From contig CAKQUE010000001.1 of the NCBI GenBank assembly GCA_934277435.1, positions 385,957-449,956 of the forward strand: a DNA stretch of 64,000 bases, written 5' to 3'. The position numbers were made by a program, and so were the translations under genes. Shown here piece after piece: positions 21,028-64,000 of the stretch. The notes below the pieces were generated by a model that was not told where the DNA came from, ran no database searches, and saw only the letters and a list, made by a program, of their open reading frames with translations. The stretch is from an uncultured Alphaproteobacteria bacterium (lineage in GTDB: Bacteria > Pseudomonadota > Alphaproteobacteria > RF32 > CAG-239). Every line of letters begins with the position of its first letter. Position 1 is the stretch's first letter.

Positions 21028-21400
21028 GGGAACTCGTCTAATGGTCTACTACTTTTAACTTTTTGTGCTTGTGTACCTCATTGTACACGGCGCAAAAAAG
21101 TTAATGCGTATTAGCCTCATTATCCAAGTCCCTGCGAGTTTGTGCCGGTTGCAGCAATAAGCAGCCGGTTTTTCTTATGTACTAGTTTGTACACTGCGCA
21201 AAAATCTTACTTCGCATTGAGCTCATTATCCGAGTTTCTTAAGAGCAAGAGCAATGCGAATAACGGCACATCTAAAGGCAATTTACGTTCGTTCAGAAAA
21301 TTCATGTACTTCTATGTACACTAGGATTTTCTTCAGAACTAGAGTTGCCTTTATCTGTACCATTATTCGCATTGCTTTATATGATTGTCACTGTTTTGTT
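21028..21400. repeat. Array A of the intergenic repeat family (about 3 units)
   Basis: Each unit has TGTAC-N6-TGTACA, then GCGCAAAAA..., then the hairpin GCCGGTTGC-loop-GCAGCCGG plus a T-run. Near-identical to 32190..32470. It starts with GGAACTCGTCTA directly after the ppiB stop. Confidence 0.85.
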
Positions 21401-32189: not shown

Positions 32190-32470
32190 TGGAACTCGTC
32201 TAGCTGGTATCTGCTGGGGATTTTTGCGCTCGTGTACTAATCTGTACACGTCGCTTAAAAATTCCGTCGCATCTACGCACGCTATCCGAGTTTCTGAGAG
32301 TTAGTGCCGGTTGCCTTAAAGCAGCCGGTTTTTCTTGTGTACCACTTTGTACACGTCGCAAAAAAGTTAATGCGTATTAGCCTCATTATCCTAGTTTCTG
32401 CAAGCTTGTGCCGGTTGCAGCAATAAGCAGCCGGTTTTCTTATGTACTAGTTTGTACATAGCGATACCAA
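32190..32470. repeat. Array B of the intergenic repeat family (about 2.5 units)
   Basis: Starts with GGAACTCGTCTA immediately after the kdsB stop. Units share TGTAC-N6-TGTACA, GCGCAAAAAAGTTAATGCGTATTAGCCTCATTATCC and the GCCGGTTGC hairpin plus T-run with array A. Confidence 0.85.
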
Positions 32471-33138: not shown

Positions 33139-33774
33139 CTAAAATGCCCAAATCGCAATGGCGCAAGTGTTGTTTGTACCGCAGTTGCATGCGTTGGCTA
33201 TAGTTGTTATGGGCATATCCTTATTATAGCAAATAGCAAAATCATTGTCTGAAGTTTCGCATTTTGCGGCTGAGGAATATTGGGTATAGCCTGAAATTTT
33301 AGAAGTACTGTTTGGATTGTTTGAACCGGAGGCAACCAAAATAGTTTTGGGACCGCCCAAACCTTTACTCAAAATTTGGATGCAAGCATCGCGGGACAGA
33401 GATTTCAGCTCAACTATAACACCTTTGTCTGTTGGGGTTAAACCATAAAGTTCTTTTGCCGAACCAACTCTAACTTCACCGCCGTAAACGTGAGTAACCT
33501 TGCCGCTGGAGTTAATCATTTCATCTGGAATAATTTTCATTTTTTTTGCAGATGTGTTATTTAAGCCGGTGTATTTACCGCCTTGACGCAACCCGATGCT
33601 TTTGGCGTTGGCAATAATAGTGCCGATTTGTTCAACAATGTTGTTAACCTTGTAGGCGTCCATGGCTTTACTGAAACCATTGATGCCGCCAACGCTCAGC
33701 ACGCCGATAATTGCCAGCACACCCAGCATTTCTATCATTGAACGACCTTGTTCAAATTTATTGATATTCATCAT
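33139..33774 (-). CDS. Type IV pilin (paralog 1)
   Basis: Prepilin leader ...FEQG^RSMIEMLGVLAIIGVLSVGGI with Glu at +5. C-terminal disulfide loop CNCGTNNTC. Confidence 0.8.
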   Translation of the reverse strand: MMNINKFEQGRSMIEMLGVLAIIGVLSVGGINGFSKAMDAYKVNNIVEQIGTIIANAKSIGLRQGGKYTGLNNTSAKKMKIIPDEMINSSGKVTHVYGGEVRVGSAKELYGLTPTDKGVIVELKSLSRDACIQILSKGLGGPKTILVASGSNNPNSTSKISGYTQYSSAAKCETSDNDFAICYNKDMPITTIANACNCGTNNTCAIAIWAF

Positions 33775-33789
33775 TTGCAGAATTCCTTA

Positions 33790-34398
33790 TTAGTTAAATT
33801 TTAAAGCTACAATACAAGAGTTAGAAGATGAGCAGTTGCAGCCTTTTGCTGCGTCAACAGGCGACATTGGGGTTTTCTCTGCCGGTAATATGGCATATTT
33901 TTTAGCAGCATTAATATCTCCAGCACCATCATCAAGTAAATCTGTCTTAAAATTTTGTTTGTCACCAACGCCAATCATTTGGAAAGTAGAACTCTTGGTG
34001 CCCCAATCTTGAGTGGCTAAATAAATACAAGCAACTTTAGGCAGTCCATTATAAGATATTATATATGACATATCTGTAGGTGTAATTTTTATATTTCCGT
34101 GGAATAGATTTGTTAAAGTTCCATTGCTAGCATTGGCAATCGCTTCTTTAGGAATAGCGCCGAATTTGATGGCAGCTTTGTTGTCTAATCCGTCATAAGA
34201 CGCAACTTCGGAACCGACAGCAGAAAGTTTTGCGGCAATAGCGTTGATTTGTTCATAAGTCTGGGTGATTTTATAACGTTCAAGCATTTGCGAAAAGGCG
34301 GCTATGCCCCCCACGCTTAAAACGCCGACAATCGCTAAAACACCAAGCATTTCTATCATAGAACGACCGGTCATATTCGATAATTTATTATAATTCAT
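33790..34398 (-). CDS. Type IV pilin (paralog 2)
   Basis: Same leader, G^RSMIEMLGVLAIVGVLSVGGI. C-terminal CNCSSSNSC. AGGAGG RBS before the ATG at 34398. Confidence 0.8.
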   Translation of the reverse strand: MNYNKLSNMTGRSMIEMLGVLAIVGVLSVGGIAAFSQMLERYKITQTYEQINAIAAKLSAVGSEVASYDGLDNKAAIKFGAIPKEAIANASNGTLTNLFHGNIKITPTDMSYIISYNGLPKVACIYLATQDWGTKSSTFQMIGVGDKQNFKTDLLDDGAGDINAAKKYAILPAEKTPMSPVDAAKGCNCSSSNSCIVALKFN

Positions 34399-40314: not shown

Positions 40315-40974
40315 TCAGTAGTATTTCCACAAAATAGAGCATGTGTTACCTTTATCGCAGTTGCATGCTTTAGCAGCTTGAGTAACTTGCATCGGTACAG
40401 CTAATGTTGTATTTCCTGGCATAGCTATAGAATCACCATCTTCTTTTTTTGCTGAGGCAGAGCCAATATAAACTGTATCCAAGCTGTCATCGCGTGCAGT
40501 TGGAGCAGCAGTTGCTGTGGCATTGCCTTTTACTTCGATAGCAATCAAACCAGAAGAATAGCCAGAACCCCAGTCGTTGGTAGCTAAAGTGATGCAAGCT
40601 TCACGTGATAATTGTGTGAATTCAATTACGAATGCTTTTGTGTCGCCATCCACAGTACTGTCAGCTTCATTGATAAATACAGGACCGTTAAACGCATTTG
40701 TCAGAGTTCCGGCAGTGGCATCTGTAACCAATTCGTCTGGTACAACACCCATAGATACAGCATTGGCATTGTCTAAATCTGTATAAGTATTTTGCTGAGC
40801 ATACAAGGTTTTGATGTTGGCAACCAACATAGAAACATTATCAGAAACTTTATTTGTTTTGAATTTGTTCATAGCTTTTGAATAGCCGGCAATACCACCA
40901 ACAGACAATACACCGATGATGGCCAATACACCCAGCATTTCAATCATGGAACGACCAGATTCATTTACTCTCAT
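40315..40974 (-). CDS. Type IV pilin (paralog 3)
   Basis: Leader MRVNESG^RSMIEMLGVLAIIGVLSVGGI. C-terminal CNCDKGNTC. AGGAGA RBS. Confidence 0.8.
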   Translation of the reverse strand: MRVNESGRSMIEMLGVLAIIGVLSVGGIAGYSKAMNKFKTNKVSDNVSMLVANIKTLYAQQNTYTDLDNANAVSMGVVPDELVTDATAGTLTNAFNGPVFINEADSTVDGDTKAFVIEFTQLSREACITLATNDWGSGYSSGLIAIEVKGNATATAAPTARDDSLDTVYIGSASAKKEDGDSIAMPGNTTLAVPMQVTQAAKACNCDKGNTCSILWKYY

Positions 40975-41175: not shown

Positions 41176-41208
41176 ATAAAAAAAGCCGTCTAAAAAGACG
41201 GCTTTCAA
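41176..41208 (-). terminator. Terminator after tRNA-Arg
   Basis: aaagccgtc-taaaaa-gacggcttt hairpin. Confidence 0.7.
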
Positions 41209-41214
41209 GCTTGT

Positions 41215-41291
41215 TGGCGCGCTCCGGGCGATTCGAACGCCCGACCCACAGCTTAGAAGGCTGTTGCTCTATCCTGCTGAGCTAGGAGCGC
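41215..41291 (-). tRNA. tRNA-Arg (anticodon TCT)
   Basis: Cloverleaf folded by hand. Acceptor GCGCUCC/GGAGCGC. Anticodon loop CUUCUAA. T-loop UUCGAAU. Encoded CCA. Confidence 0.9.
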
Positions 41292-44486: not shown

Positions 44487-44903
44487 ATGAGCATAGCTAA
44501 CAATTTTAGAACCGTGTTAAAATACGCTCAGAATAAGGAGTGTATGATGGTTGTAGCTGATTCTGACTATATTGTTTTATTGGGTAGTAAAATTGCCAGA
44601 TTGCGTAAAATGCAAGGTTTGAACCAGTTTGAATTTGCTGATAAATGCGGTAAAATGGTTAATACTATTTCTAAAATTGAAAGAGGTATTGGCGATCCGC
44701 GCTTGTCTACACTGATTAATATTGCCGAAGCTTTGAATATTTCAGTAACAGAGCTTTTGGATAGTCATTTTATTAGTCCGGCTATGAGCAGAATGACTGG
44801 TGCAGAAAATGTGGATTCTGCCATTGATGGTCTTTTGTTGCAGTGTGATGATGAAACTAAAGCTGTTGTATTGTCATTGCTGCAGCTGTTGGTGAAAAAA
44901 TAA
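44487..44903 (+). CDS. XRE-family helix-turn-helix transcriptional regulator
   Basis: HTH_3 pattern (LRKMQGLNQFEFADKCGKMVNTISKIERG). The real start is probably an internal Met. Confidence 0.65.
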   Translation: MSIANNFRTVLKYAQNKECMMVVADSDYIVLLGSKIARLRKMQGLNQFEFADKCGKMVNTISKIERGIGDPRLSTLINIAEALNISVTELLDSHFISPAMSRMTGAENVDSAIDGLLLQCDDETKAVVLSLLQLLVKK

Positions 44904-44965
44904 TCAAAGCAATTAATTTTTTTATAACTTTTTTACTCTGTCCCCAACTTTAACGATGAACCAGC

Positions 44966-45242
44966 TTGTGTCAAACCCGCTTTTTCGCGGCTTCTTATCC
45001 CTTGATACTTCACCAACAAAAAAAAGCCACCATAAAGGTGGCTTTACTGTTGGTGAGCTCGGTGGGATTACTCCACTTCGTTTCGTTCACTGCGCTCATA
45101 GGCATTGCCTACCGGCACACTCCCGTGCGCCTTTCGCTTGTGTCAAACCCGCTTTTTCGCGGCTTCTTAGCCCTTGATACTTCACCAACAAAAAAAGCCA
45201 CCATAAAGGTGGCTTTACTGTTGGTGAGCTCGGTGGGATTCG
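44966..45242. repeat. Tandem direct repeat (2 x ~102 bp) containing the tRNA-Lys 3' end plus flank
   Basis: 44966..45068 and 45141..45242 are near-identical. Each ends in tggtgagctcggtgggatt (tRNA 3' end) and carries the hairpin aaagccacc-ataa-ggtggcttt. Confidence 0.85.
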
Positions 45243-45297
45243 AACCCGCGACCCTTTGATTAAAAGTCAAATGCTCTACCGACTGAGCTACGAACTC
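45222..45297 (-). tRNA. tRNA-Lys (anticodon TTT)
   Basis: Hand-folded. Acceptor GAGUUCG/CGAGCUC. Anticodon loop CUUUUAA. T-loop UUCGAAU. CCA encoded. Confidence 0.85.
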
Positions 45298-60778: not shown

Positions 60779-60854
60779 GGGCGCTTAGCTCAGCTGGAAG
60801 AGCATCTCGTTTACACCGAGAGGGTCGGGAGTTCGAGCCTCTCAGCGCCCACCA
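60779..60854 (+). tRNA. tRNA-Val (anticodon TAC)
   Basis: Hand-folded. Acceptor GGGCGCU/AGCGCCC. Anticodon loop UUUACAC. T-loop UUCGAGC. CCA encoded. Confidence 0.9.
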
Positions 60855-61127
60855 CTTAAATAGCTGCCGCAAGGCAGTTTTTTTGTTTTTAAAGCTTTGA
60901 AGCTCAAACTCCCTCGGGAGTTCGTTTGCATTCGATATAAATTGCTGCGCGCAAAGCTAGTTTGGCTGGCAATTTATGAATGCTGCACCTTTCGTTGAAA
61001 AATATCCATTAAGGGATATTTTTCTGTCTCAAGCCGGTGTCTCAGCGCCCACCACTTAAATAGCTGCCGCAAGGCAGTTTTTTTGTTTTTAAAGCTTTAA
61101 GGCTCAAACTCCATCAGGAGTTCATCG
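60841..61127. repeat. Direct repeat (2 x ~87 bp) of the tRNA-Val 3' end plus downstream flank
   Basis: 60841..60927 and 61041..61127 share ctcagcgcccaccacttaaatagctgccgcaaggcagtttttttgtttttaaagcttt...ctcaaactcc..ggagttc with about 4 mismatches. Each copy contains the terminator ctgcc-gcaa-ggcag plus T7. Confidence 0.85.
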
Positions 61128-61239
61128 TAAAAGTTGGGCAGAGTAAAAAGTTATAAAAAATAGTTCTTTATCTTTACATTTTAATATCAAGAAATTATAT
61201 TTTATGCAGAAATAGTTTTTGTCTTTAGAAGGAGAAAAT

Positions 61240-61764
61240 ATGATGGATAAAAAAGAAAAAATGGAAGCGGCTAAAGAAGAGCATAAATGCTGCTGTAATA
61301 AAAACTGCGATTGCGGTTGTCAAGAGGGTAAAGAATGCACTTGTGGCTGCGGTTGTGGTTGTGGCTGCGGTTGTTGCTGCAAGAAAAAAGTTTTTAAAGT
61401 TTTGGCGGTATTGGTTATCTTTTTGGCTGGTATGGGGTTTCAGGCTTTGTTGCAATGCGGTTTTCGCTGCCCAATGAACAAGCCGCGTCCAATGCCGGTA
61501 CAGATGGCTCCAATTCCGGCGATGCCTATGCCTGCTTATTCTGACGCTCAAGGCGGTGACATCATTATTATTAATACTGATGGTTTAGCCGGTATAGAAA
61601 AGTTTTTGAAGAACAAAGGCTGTTCCAAGGATTGCGGCTGCAAAAAAATAAAACACGACCATGATCATCATTCACACAAAAAAGATAAGCATTCGGAATT
61701 TCACGCAGATAGACATGCTCATATGCCGGAACATGCGCCAATGGCACCGGAAGCGGTTAAATAA
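61240..61764 (+). CDS. Cys-rich / His-rich metal-binding membrane protein (metallothionein-like N-terminus)
   Basis: N-terminal CCCNKNCDCGCQEGKECTCGCGCGCGCGCCC, one TM helix, Met/Pro-rich segment, His-rich C-terminus HDHDHHSH...HADRHAHMPEH. AAGGAG RBS. Confidence 0.65.
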   Translation: MMDKKEKMEAAKEEHKCCCNKNCDCGCQEGKECTCGCGCGCGCGCCCKKKVFKVLAVLVIFLAGMGFQALLQCGFRCPMNKPRPMPVQMAPIPAMPMPAYSDAQGGDIIIINTDGLAGIEKFLKNKGCSKDCGCKKIKHDHDHHSHKKDKHSEFHADRHAHMPEHAPMAPEAVK

Positions 61765-61818: not shown

Positions 61819-61972
61819 TGTGACATTTATATGACAATTTTATAACAAATTTATTTTATGTTTGCTTATTTTACAAGAGTTTGTTAGAATAATTATGGGG
61901 GAGTAGTCCGACTTTATATAAAGTTAGGACTGTATGGTTATATAATTTTAGGAGGCTTTACGATGAGCAAAA

Positions 61973-64000
61973 TGAAGCAAATAGCGGCTTTGACGGCTAT
62001 GCTGGTTGGCGTGATTATGTATGCGTCGCCTGCAAAATGTGCGGTCTGTTTTTTGCCTGATGATGACGGCAGTTGCGGCGGCGGAGATATAGAAATTTCG
62101 GACGGTAGCGGTAGCGATGACGATAAACCGGTAAAAGAATGCAGCGGTTTTACGGTTAGTGCCACAAATTATGACAAGATGAAAGATTGTTTTAATTTTA
62201 CATATTGCACAAAATCAAAAACAAAAGAAGTAGTCTATAAAAAAGGGGGTAAAAAAAGCAATACCCACTGGTATCCTAATTGGAACGCTTGCTGCACAGG
62301 TGGAACAGCCTATGATTTGAGAGAAGGTAAGTGTTGTCCGGCTGGCGGCTGTGTACACGACGAATGTGACGCCCCGAAAGTATGGAGCAGCATTTTGGGT
62401 AACTGCGTATGTCCGGCTGACAGAGAAGAAAATACAACTAGTAATACGTGTTGTCCTGTTGGCGAACACGCAGATGGTGCGATTTGTTGTCCAGATAAAA
62501 AACATAATGAAGGCGGTGAGTGTAAGTGCGACAGTAAATACAATACCGATAAAAATGGTAATTGCGTATTGCCGAATAACTGCACTTATGCCTATCGCCA
62601 AGCTACAACAGCAGATAGCTGTGGTTTAAAACATTTTGAAAATACTACTAAGTGTATGGATAGCATAAATGGCTGTTTGTGTTACACTCAATTGCAGAAA
62701 GTATCATCTGTTTATGCTGGGAGCGCTGGAACTGTTATTCCACTTAACAAAATCAGCAATACGTCTGCAACTTGCATTGATGAAAACAATGTAACTAGAT
62801 ACCAGACAATTTGTCCAGGAACGCCAGAATCAGGATGTACTGATAAAGATAAAGAGTTTAAGCCAAACGGCTGCGTAAGCGATACTTATAACAATGGTTT
62901 TGAAGTTAAGGGTGTTAGATGGGGTGATTGCGTTAAAAAAGAAGAAACCTGCCTTTATGAATATACTATGTTAACGACAAAAGATACAGGCGGAGTCACG
63001 GATATTAGCGGTCAATCACTTAGATATAGTAAGAATTGGAATGATAAGTGTTATAAAGAGGGCCGTAAAATAGAAAAGACTTCTACTTGCTATGGTTATG
63101 AAGGTTCCAATGGTACTTATAGTTGTGGCGGCACTAGTGATGGACCAAAATGCACCAATCCAGGAAGCAGTTGCAAAATTACACAGACTTGCACGATGCG
63201 CTATAATTGTCCAACTCAGGCATCTTGCGGTATAGCGGATAATCCGTCTGTTTATAGTGAAGGTATATTTGTTGGAAGTCACTGGAGCACACCTTATAAC
63301 AGAATAAGTAATGCATCCGCAAGCTGCACAACAATTGATGGAGTAACAAAATATCAAACTATTTGTGAGGGAACTCCTAAACAAAAATGTGATAAAAAAT
63401 TTACACCAAATAACTGCGTAAGTAGTGATTATAGCAACGGTGTTCAAGTCTTGGGTGCAGAGTGGGGAACGTGTGGTTGCGATACAGACAAAGGATATTA
63501 TGATAGCATGGAAACATGCAGAAGTAATGCAAACTCTGACGGCTGTATGACATCCAATATTTATGGTTGCTATCAAACCTGCAAATCCAGAAGAGGGTAT
63601 TTTTCAACCCTAGAAGACTGCAGAGATACAACCTATAGCGTTAGCTGCAATAAAACTGATGATTGTTATGAGAGAAGAATGCAAGGCTTCTTGATTAAAT
63701 ATGAAACAGATTTAAAACTACTAGTAGATTGTCATAGTCCTTATTCTTACACTGTTAGGGTAAATGCGTTCTTAATGGATGTTACTAAAAATAAATATTC
63801 TGGACTAGAAGAAGCAGACAGATACTCTACAACAATTAGCGGAGAAAAACATATAGCTCTGCCTGTAGATACTTCAAAAGGATATCAATATACGGCAGGA
63901 ACCTATTATCTTTGCTACCAAAGCAGCTGTTCATCATCAGGTAGTAATAATCAAAAATGTCCTAATGTTTCTGTAAAATCTGTGCAGTTACTAAAACAAT
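61973..64000 (+). CDS. Very large secreted cysteine-rich repeat protein (5' partial, continues beyond the window)
   Basis: Hand translation from the ATG at 61973 (GGAGG RBS). Signal peptide MSKMKQIAALTAMLVGVIMYASPA. More than 675 aa open to the window end. Over 10% Cys. Internal repeats, for example ...ISNTSATCIDENNVTRYQTICPGTPESGC... and ...ISNASASCTTIDGVTKYQTICEGTPKQKC.... It is missing from the ORF track because there is no stop in the window. Confidence 0.7.

Follow-up and report, generated by a model that had tools for sequence, protein, structure and literature searches.

A duplicated tRNA-Val 3' end in an uncultured alphaproteobacterium as probable tandem copies of a small non-coding tRNA-tail unit

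Duplications of a tRNA 3' end are usually read, also by island-finding software, as the scars of islands brought in by an integrase, and Williams reportedly sorted the attachment (att) sites of tRNA-targeting integrases into sublocation classes in 2002. Such a duplication lies behind the tRNA-Val gene in a 64,000-nt stretch of DNA (contig CAKQUE010000001.1 of assembly GCA_934277435.1, positions 385,957 to 449,956 of the forward strand) from an uncultured alphaproteobacterium, hereafter called the window. A preliminary description had read the duplication as the mark of an island carrying two cysteine-rich (Cys-rich) genes as cargo, with a recurrent process or small mobile unit as the alternative. 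We found that the duplication of the tRNA tail is real, that the island reading is wrong and that the alternative of a small recurrent unit is right. The locus probably consists of 1.4 tandem copies of a 200-nt non-coding unit, which we call a tRNA-tail unit, with the stub of an insertion sequence (IS) behind them. Loci from other assemblies are referred to by handles such as L001.

ARAGORN called three tRNA genes in the window. A repeat search placed the direct repeat at tRNA-Val at 60840-60923 and 61040-61123 (84 nt, 80/84 identical, 200 nt start to start), and a match of this length at 95% identity is much more than chance would give. The repeat begins 15 nt before the tRNA 3' end, these 15 nt being TCTCAGCGCCCACCA, and each copy holds an intrinsic terminator and a short hairpin. 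The duplicated tRNA 3' end and flank therefore stand as first described, with minor corrections to the repeat (84 nt for about 87 bp), its tRNA part (15 nt for 14) and the spacer (116 nt, 60924-61039, for 113 bp). The same duplication was assembled independently in three further samples, namely in the 561-kb contig L010, which ends within the second repeat copy, in the 67.7-kb contig L001, whose first base lies exactly at that copy, and in L032, where one contig spans the whole structure; because it recurs in all three, it is not an assembly artefact. The parts of the locus are listed here.

60779-60854, plus strand: tRNA-Val(tac), by ARAGORN; Rfam tRNA model, 63.6 bits
60840-61039, plus strand: unit 1, complete, 200 nt, from repeat comparison, terminator and T-arm match
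60840-60854, plus strand: tail O1 of unit 1
60862-60884, plus strand: intrinsic terminator of unit 1, followed by a linker
60907-60924, plus strand: hairpin H1 of unit 1, containing TCGGGAGTTCG at 60914-60924
60925-61039, plus strand: right part of unit 1 (core B), 115 nt, two hairpins, ending ..TCAAGCCGGTG before the second tail
61040-61123, plus strand: unit 2, truncated, with tail O2 (61040-61054), intrinsic terminator (61062-61084), linker and H1' (61107-61123)
61120-61160, plus strand: 41-nt stub of the right inverted repeat (IRR) of an ISL3 IS, GTTCATCGTAAAAGTTGGGCAGAGTAAAAAGTTATAAAAAA, a 90.9% match to the IS end in L004

The sequence TCGGGAGTTCG in H1 is an 11-nt match to the 5' half of the T-arm of tRNA-Val itself (tRNA 60825-60835), and unit 1 folds into four hairpins, better than its shuffles (z = -3.63). 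Unit 2 differs in the innermost pair of H1', where C-G is replaced by A.A, and ends directly after H1, where ..GAGTTC joins the IS tip (G)GTTCATCG.

The preliminary description had also pointed to the same layout at tRNA-Lys, and this was borne out by repeats at 45136-45240 and 44964-45069 (105/106 nt) with a period of 171-172 nt.

45222-45297, minus strand: tRNA-Lys(ttt), by ARAGORN and the Rfam tRNA model
45070-45240, minus strand: unit 1, canonical, 171 nt; nhmmer match to the core profile at E = 1.5e-19, a value not independent of this copy, which is in the profile's seed alignment
45222-45240, 45190-45216, 45143-45166 and 45070-45142, minus strand: tail O1, terminator, H1 and conserved core of unit 1
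44964-45069, minus strand: unit 2, truncated, with tail O2 (45051-45069), terminator (45019-45045) and H1 (44971-44994)
44917-44962, minus strand: 46-nt ISL3 IRR stub, tip toward the tRNA-Lys units

Unit 2 at tRNA-Lys is cut after ..GACACAAGC, the first bases of the core.

Beyond the window, the suggested recurrent process took the form of a discrete 170-200-nt non-coding unit whose relatives follow seven or more species of tRNA across many related genomes. The spacer motif of tRNA-Lys was also found in L003 and L006, a metagenome scan with the tRNA-Lys core yielded 11 loci, and an nhmmer profile of the core gave 26 matches, 25 of them at E <= 1e-4, from 17 sources that include the window. The hosts are uncultured gut and rumen Alphaproteobacteria, and the tRNAs that adjoin the units, where these lie on the contig, are Lys(ctt), Lys(ttt), Gly, Gln, Asn, Pro, Met and Val.

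The order of parts after the tRNA CCA is an intrinsic terminator of variable sequence, a linker of about 20 nt, H1, a conserved core and a second tail, after which comes either the next unit or a terminator mostly unlike the first. In H1, GAA and the complement of the T-stem 5' strand come first, next a purine loop (GARRAA), and last the T-stem 5' strand itself with TTCGA. The conserved core starts with CTACAAGCGAAA, H2 (GGCGGAC-GGRA-GTACGCC) and GGT and ends with H3, ATGAGCGCAGTG.., an optional fourth hairpin and ..GGAC; as a criterion for it we used CTACAAGCGAAA-GGCGGACGGRAGTACGCC-GGT-hairpin-ATGAGCGC. The second tail (19 nt in nine loci, 18 nt at tRNA-Val of L024) starts at position 58/59 in the T-loop and repeats the tRNA sequence without change, except for one mismatch in the Met unit. 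The 3' arm of H1 likewise equals the T-stem 5' strand plus TTCG of its own tRNA exactly for Gly (two lineages), Gln, Asn, Met and Val (three lineages, including the window), and with 1-3 mismatches for Lys and Pro, the arm at tRNA-Lys of the window reading GCGGGTTTGA vs GCGGGTTCGA in the tRNA. Because the next tail follows directly after the core, the unit amounts to a T-arm copy (..T-stem-TTCGA, then core, then AATCC..CCA) split at about A58/N59. Among the family loci the unit period is 167-191 nt and arrays hold 1-3 units, copy number varying even between strains of the window species (window, L019, L023); at L024 and L017, each with a single unit, the duplication takes in the sequence from the T-loop through the terminator end.

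Three further sites carry partial or similar sequences. At L004 (~1966-2045) a 27-nt partial tRNA-Gly, from anticodon loop to T-loop (positions 32-58), is joined directly to a divergent core-like CCGCAAGTGAAAGCC.., the junction sitting at the truncated inner end of an ISL3 copy; this fits a core having entered a tRNA copy at its T-loop, with later decay of the 5' part of that copy. At L007 (~1797-1933) a partial tRNA-Gly is followed by two units of a divergent core subfamily. In the window, the trailer of the third tRNA gene begins ACAAGCTTGAAAGCCG, resembling the core start ACAAGCGAAAGGCG; it has no H1 and no second tail, and may therefore be a chance likeness or a relic.

41215-41291, minus strand: tRNA-Arg(tct), by ARAGORN
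41190-41214, minus strand: trailer of tRNA-Arg(tct)

Restriction-modification and RhuM-type genes (Eco57I/N6_Mtase, DNA_methylase, Virulence_RhuM) form clusters beside some of the tRNA, unit or IS loci in related genomes (L004 789-1820, L007 3274-6396 and neighbours).

A plain local tandem duplication of the tRNA-Val flank, by slippage or unequal crossing-over and with no element family behind it, would formally account for 1.4 copies of a 200-nt period, and the first ~95 nt past the tRNA are homologous to the single-copy flank of the sister species L011. That flank contains H1, however, and is therefore itself a truncated unit and not plain flank. Moreover, the T-arm is where the duplication has its boundary at tRNA-Val, tRNA-Lys and 10 further loci alike, H1 mimics the T-stem of each tRNA concerned, and L024 has a canonical unit at tRNA-Val. 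The family-wide architecture already contradicts plain duplication, to which we give very little credence.

The unit in the window at tRNA-Val has the tail, the terminator and an H1 with the T-stem copy; the conserved core is present in the tRNA-Lys unit and absent from the tRNA-Val unit. In its place stands core B, which has the position of the conserved core in canonical units and an unrelated sequence, with no homologue in the fetched loci except in strains of the same species. The first 24 nt of core B are shared with L011, the homology ending at window position 60948. Among relatives, tRNA-Val is followed by a canonical unit with conserved core in L024, by a unit truncated after TAACAAGCGAA in L025, by one truncated 24 nt after H1 in L011/L012 and by no unit in L026/L027. 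The units in L024, L025 and L011/L012 indicate that the unit is long resident at tRNA-Val and had its right half replaced in this lineage. In L032, of the same species, the terminator of unit 1 differs from that of unit 2, indicating exchange or recombination within units between strains.

We examined the structure of the unit by counting pairs in H1-H3 of 17 units, with slid 3' partners and 500 shuffles as controls. Standard pairs filled 72% of cells vs 27-42% with the 3' partners slid; 11 pairs were altered on both sides vs 6.6+-1.3 in shuffles (0/500 reached 11), and the covariation score was 0.195 vs 0.116+-0.015 (0/500 reached it), H1 being undercounted because several rows were one column out of register. 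H2 has a GNRA-type (GGRA) loop and compensated variants of its stem (GCGA/TCGC in L024, GCCG/TGGC in L021-Met, GGCGCAC/GTGTGCC in the window), and H3 alternates Watson-Crick stems and tandem G.A. This compensatory change favours a single-strand function, as RNA or single-stranded DNA (ssDNA), over duplex protein-binding arms. Neither terminal inverted repeats nor a short target duplication is present around the core: its ends CTACAAGC.. and ..GCGGAC are not inverted repeats, and the sole duplication is the 18-19-nt tRNA tail.

RNAalifold drew no information from the first alignment, with its nearly invariant core and misaligned H1, and was replaced by the pair counting. A hammerhead core was rejected: GAAA .. 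CCGAUGAG occurs in type-II order, but the motif is CCGAUGAG and not CUGAUGAG, U4 is changed to C, and stems II and III do not form. A tRNA-like acceptor helix, with the linker pairing to the tail, was likewise rejected, as its duplex energies were no better than those of shuffled linkers (z -1.8 to +1.4). With Rfam 15, only tRNA models matched in the window and four loci, and nothing matched the units at E <= 1 to 5. A literature search, by words or by the core sequence string, returned nothing relevant.

The layout of tails and terminators bears on a further explanation, that the units are miniature integrase-dependent elements (attP-only, or like cis-mobilizable elements, CIMEs), moved in trans by a T-loop-targeting tyrosine integrase and stacked by repeated integration. 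The tail repeat does begin in the T-loop and end at CCA in arrays of 1-3 units, each unit brings a replacement tail and terminator, and the terminator behind the last tail differs in at least six loci (L003, L014, L015, L016, L021); the unit is also near the size of a minimal attP, which for lambda is about 240 bp. The compensatory changes in three hairpins, however, point to a single strand and not to duplex protein-binding arms, an integrase has no role for the tRNA-specific T-stem copy in H1, 70-85 nt upstream of the tail, and units at different tRNAs of one genome are diverged. Nor did our gene census reveal such an enzyme: it covered 69 open reading frames (ORFs), each 200 aa or longer, from 18 loci with a unit or an IS, and the Pfam families matched by two or more of these ORFs included neither an integrase nor TnpB nor a reverse transcriptase, with the best 25 of 80 families listed and a single occurrence possible among the remainder. 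Inspection of ORFs in the 2.6 kb between two units of L022 showed no recognisable recombinase, and scans of viral contigs with the IS end, the conserved core and the tRNA-Val spacer gave 0 matches, so that nothing ties the units to phages. Miniature integrative elements seem to us rather unlikely.

In another reading, which we regard as unlikely in the form stated, the core is an RNA- or ssDNA-based mobile insert in the T-loop of a copied tRNA 3' segment. Three versions of it would fit: an IS200/IS605-type mini-element whose right end and adjoining tRNA tail are transcribed into something like a guide RNA, with scaffold, 18-19-nt guide and terminator; a chimaera of element RNA and pre-tRNA 3' end, retro-copied and installed by homologous recombination; or a functional tRNA-mimic RNA. 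In tRNAs of seven amino-acid identities the core separates ..TTCGA from the tail, at about A58/N59 and with no target duplication, and at least two unrelated cores occupy the same position (tRNA-Val of the window vs that of L024), with a possible third in the flank of tRNA-Glu. The hairpins covary, with a GNRA loop and tandem G.A pairs; the duplicated segment of L024 and L017, from T-loop to terminator end, is the 3' end of a primary tRNA transcript; and the tail has the 18-19 nt of retroviral primer-binding sites and typical guides. On the other side, no TnpA, TnpB or reverse-transcriptase gene recurs near the units in the ORF census, there is no Rfam match to omega-RNA or ribozyme families, the hammerhead core misfits, and the H1 5' arm and linker are not explained.

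At L001 3150-3685 (about window 64190-64724, slightly past the window's end), tRNA-Glu(ctc) lies on the minus strand and converges on the Cys-rich genes. Behind it follow a terminator and an H1-like hairpin (GAACTCGTAGAGTTCGA) mimicking its own T-arm, and then ~400 nt of G+C-rich, hairpin-rich non-coding DNA that may be a third type of core.

Immediately after the second repeat, the tRNA-Val and tRNA-Lys loci share a sequence of 41-46 nt, GTTCATCGTWAAAGTTGGG..CAGAGTAAAAAGTTATAAAAAA, with 2 matches in the window vs 0 expected. A GTDB genome scan with this sequence gave seven loci in metagenome-assembled genomes (MAGs) of uncultured Alphaproteobacteria, mostly 70-100 nt downstream of tRNA genes. 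In L004 it runs ~920 nt into a transposase ORF (Pfam DDE_Tnp_ISL3, E = 5.7e-60; NCBIfam NF033550, 201.5 bits vs a cut-off of 180), and L030 (1407-2763) holds a full 1.36-kb IS with a 392-aa transposase and two ~27-nt terminal inverted repeats, the left (IRL) GGTTCCCCGTCAAAGTTTGGGGCAAAAG and the right (IRR) GGTTCATCGTCAAAGTTGGGGGCAGAGT, to the latter of which the window sequence corresponds. Each window site bears one IS end of the IRR type (41 nt and 46 nt), and the two stubs lie 16 kb apart in the same arrangement. The tRNA-Val stub has its tip toward the tRNA and shares GTTC with the end of H1', and the tRNA-Lys stub abuts the 3' end of a helix-turn-helix (HTH) gene (44487-44903). The window has no transposase, tblastn with that of L004 giving E = 1.6 at best.

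Other genomes contain IS stubs of 33-300 nt and an internally deleted copy. IS tips adjoin units at six different internal positions; outside the window the tip follows GAGCGCCGTGG in three cases, and it also lies within H1 and behind a partial third tail. The ISL3 IS would thus prefer tRNA-tail units as targets, much as some IS families target repetitive extragenic palindromic (REP) sequences. The deleted copy, in L006 (2945-3198), is ~250 nt long and retains both ends without the transposase; independent IS fragments in L005 (7528-7827) and L008 (1436-1733), from different genomes, both end after the same 300 nt (..AATAATTCTA).

Both IS stubs coincide with synteny breakpoints, the homology to L011 ending at window positions 60948 and 44752. 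In the sister species L011/L012, whose MATE protein is 90% identical, tRNA-Val has a single-copy tail, no IS stub and no Cys-rich genes, and is followed by an ACP-like gene and then by a tRNA-Arg/ABC-F/HTH block that in the window adjoins the other, tRNA-Lys, IS stub. Together with the absence of the Cys-rich genes in L011/L012 there is a broader rearrangement of gene blocks, with breakpoints that match the IS stubs in position, and we infer that recombination or deletion at IS copies gave the present gene order, with the Cys-rich genes beside tRNA-Val.

Two Cys-rich genes do follow tRNA-Val as described, but the second product, called giant, measures 750 aa in full (P0121; its end was seen in L001).

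61240-61764, plus strand: Cys/His-rich protein of 174 aa with one hydrophobic segment and a CGCGCGCGCGCC run, outside unit and IS stub
61963-64000, plus strand, running off the window: Cys-rich secreted or lipoprotein-like protein, 750 aa in full, strain-variable

Neither protein has a Pfam or NCBIfam match, and exact look-up of the full 750-aa protein (P0121) returned no contig. The large protein has at least 145 homologues of 500-750 aa without a known domain, those with a named source all from alphaproteobacterial MAGs, and homologues at 51-53% are flanked by MurJ and a cation-efflux gene, away from any tRNA. The Cys-rich genes are present in L001 and L032, strains of the same species. In L032 (7001-9025) the gene is replaced from window position 62964 on, after 96.9% identity over the 8 kb before, with only a 205-nt stretch matching beyond at 79% and a product of 674 aa vs 750 aa; in L001 (924-3174) it is broken into two parts of 92 aa and 606 aa. 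The Cys-rich genes form a family that is specific to the lineage and varies between strains, and they cannot be shown to be island cargo.

In the reading as a classical genomic island or prophage remnant, a tyrosine integrase set it at tRNA-Val, with the repeats as attL and an internal att and the Cys-rich genes as cargo. Like the att sites of tRNA-targeting integrases, the repeat does start in the T-arm and take in the tRNA 3' end, and L011/L012 are without the Cys-rich genes at tRNA-Val, which belong to a lineage-specific, strain-variable family. In the stretch covered, however, the predicted far boundary did not appear. L001 continues 10.7 kb past the second repeat without an integrase among its called genes; a third tRNA-Val tail is also missing, TCTCAGCGCCCACCA (<=2 mismatches) occurring in the window only at 60840 and 61040 and in L001 nowhere beyond 1-15. 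Core genes stand there within 3.5 kb, the Cys-rich genes being followed by tRNA-Glu(ctc), SodB, a response regulator, a phosphoglucosamine-mutase-type gene (PGM_PMM Pfam domains), an outer-membrane protein, LpxC, BamD and RecN. The gene tables of L010 and L011, with Pfam, show no integrase in the 16 kb between the two tRNAs either, and the G+C content is ordinary, 0.37-0.41 across 61-64 kb vs 0.35-0.45 in the flanks. Finally, the repeats lie 200 nt apart with identity extending well past the tRNA, and the second runs into an ISL3 end and not an att arm. Of the two findings that the preliminary description named as weakening an island, the lack of another att copy or integrase was thus obtained, whereas the sister species L011/L012 did not show the Cys-rich genes in the corresponding position. 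The island and its cargo are therefore hardly credible.

Two other features of the window deserve mention. A short repeat family, CTTGTGTACC..GTACACGGCGCAAAAAAGTT, is unrelated to the tRNA-tail units and occurs at two sites 11 kb apart, each with two copies 106 nt apart; three paralogous type IV pilin-like N-termini (PilS/Bundlin Pfam on 40315-40974) belong to a gene family whose homologues adjoin tRNA/IS loci in relatives (L011; 3 PilS matches in the ORF census).

21053-21239 and 32229-32438: sites of the CTTGTGTACC..GTACACGGCGCAAAAAAGTT repeats
33683-33754, 34304-34375 and 40892-40963: pilin-like N-termini

Taken together, these data suggest how the units may behave. The unit would act single-stranded, most likely as RNA with a tRNA-like 3' tail. 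Copy number would shift by recombination between the repeated tail (plus terminator) segments, either as unequal crossing-over or by loop-out and re-entry of a circle, and an IS that targets units would, by recombination or deletion at its copies, have placed the Cys-rich genes beside tRNA-Val. A new unit might arise by an integrase acting in trans on a gene-less, attP-like circle; by the core entering a duplicated tRNA 3' segment at its T-loop, in an IS200/IS605-like or RNA-guided manner; or as a retro-copied chimaera with a pre-tRNA 3' end, integrated by homologous recombination. We tentatively suggest that the units may be an undescribed class of structured single-strand element, likely RNA, either guide-like or retro-mobile and homing via the T-loop, or a cellular tRNA mimic. 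The scaffold of such an element would be H1, the GNRA hairpin and the covarying hairpin, its end would be the 18-19-nt tRNA tail and terminator, and different cores would share the T-loop site (about A58/N59 of the T-arm copy).

Several points weigh against this account of the locus and its units. The tRNA-Val unit has no nhmmer or BLAST match to the conserved core, so its membership of the family would follow from its shared left half and position only. Since each unit begins with a terminator, an RNA product could form only by read-through or from an unrecognised promoter. Genes for a recombinase, a reverse transcriptase or a TnpB-like protein do not recur near units in the ORF census, which leaves the step that creates a unit without a candidate enzyme. 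The Pro and Met units on one contig of L021 are well diverged and give no sign of recent mobility. On the IS side, an 8-bp target duplication is lacking at the full IS of L030, whose flanks AAAAAGCC and GACCGAGG do not match, and IS-mediated rearrangement is deduced from the breakpoints.

In this gut and rumen clade of Alphaproteobacteria, then, the scar usually ascribed to an integrase comes from a gene-less, structured 170-200-nt unit tailored to each tRNA. Such units would yield false island calls; they also break metagenome assemblies, several contigs ending in them, attract an ISL3 element and mark synteny breakpoints. The Cys-rich proteins are a curiosity apart: their family is large, restricted to the clade and variable between strains, and no domain is known in it. 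Should the units prove RNA-guided, retro-copied or tRNA-mimicking, the universal T-loop would be exploited in a new way.

Among described systems, tRNA integrative elements (of the T-loop class, with CIME remnants and tandem accretion) are like the units in their tRNA 3' repeat from T-loop to CCA, their restored tail and terminator, their tandem arrays and the native tail and terminator displaced to the far side. The units differ from them in being 170-200 nt long and without genes or a recurrent integrase, and in having a covarying conserved core and a T-stem-copying hairpin. The REP sequences, bacterial interspersed mosaic elements (BIMEs), REPINs and miniature inverted-repeat transposable elements (MITEs), such as the BIMEs of E. 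coli and the RPEs of Rickettsia, are likewise short, non-coding, hairpin-rich and multi-copy; they too lie after terminators, keep their stems by compensatory change and are preferred landing sites for ISs (here ISL3). Unlike them, each unit is tied to one tRNA, carries its 18-19-nt tail and 9-10-nt T-arm half, and has no terminal inverted repeats, short target duplication or GTAG-type signature.

The full ISL3 IS of relatives encodes a Zn_ribbon_ISL3 and DDE_Tnp_ISL3 transposase within its inverted repeats, whereas the window has only the two one-ended stubs of the right end, at which an 8-bp target duplication would not show. Retroviral and long terminal repeat (LTR) element primer-binding sites, and the Neurospora Mauriceville retroplasmid, which forms hybrid cDNA and recombines homologously at tRNA genes, resemble the units in an 18-19-nt copy of the tRNA 3' end up to 58/59 and in tRNA 3' sequence on both sides of the insert, but the copy in the units is sense and not complementary, and no reverse transcriptase was found. 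The miniature IS200/IS605 elements (PATEs) and TnpB omega-RNAs share with the units the lack of target duplication, insertion 3' of a short fixed sequence (TTCGA), subterminal hairpins, and a right end followed by a guide-length flank and a terminator; the units differ in having no TnpA/TnpB nearby, no Rfam IS605-orfB/HEARO match and, as target, a partial tRNA copy beside the intact gene. While the units fail the defining tests of each, they share features with integrative elements, with REP/BIME-like repeats and with IS200/IS605 mini-elements.

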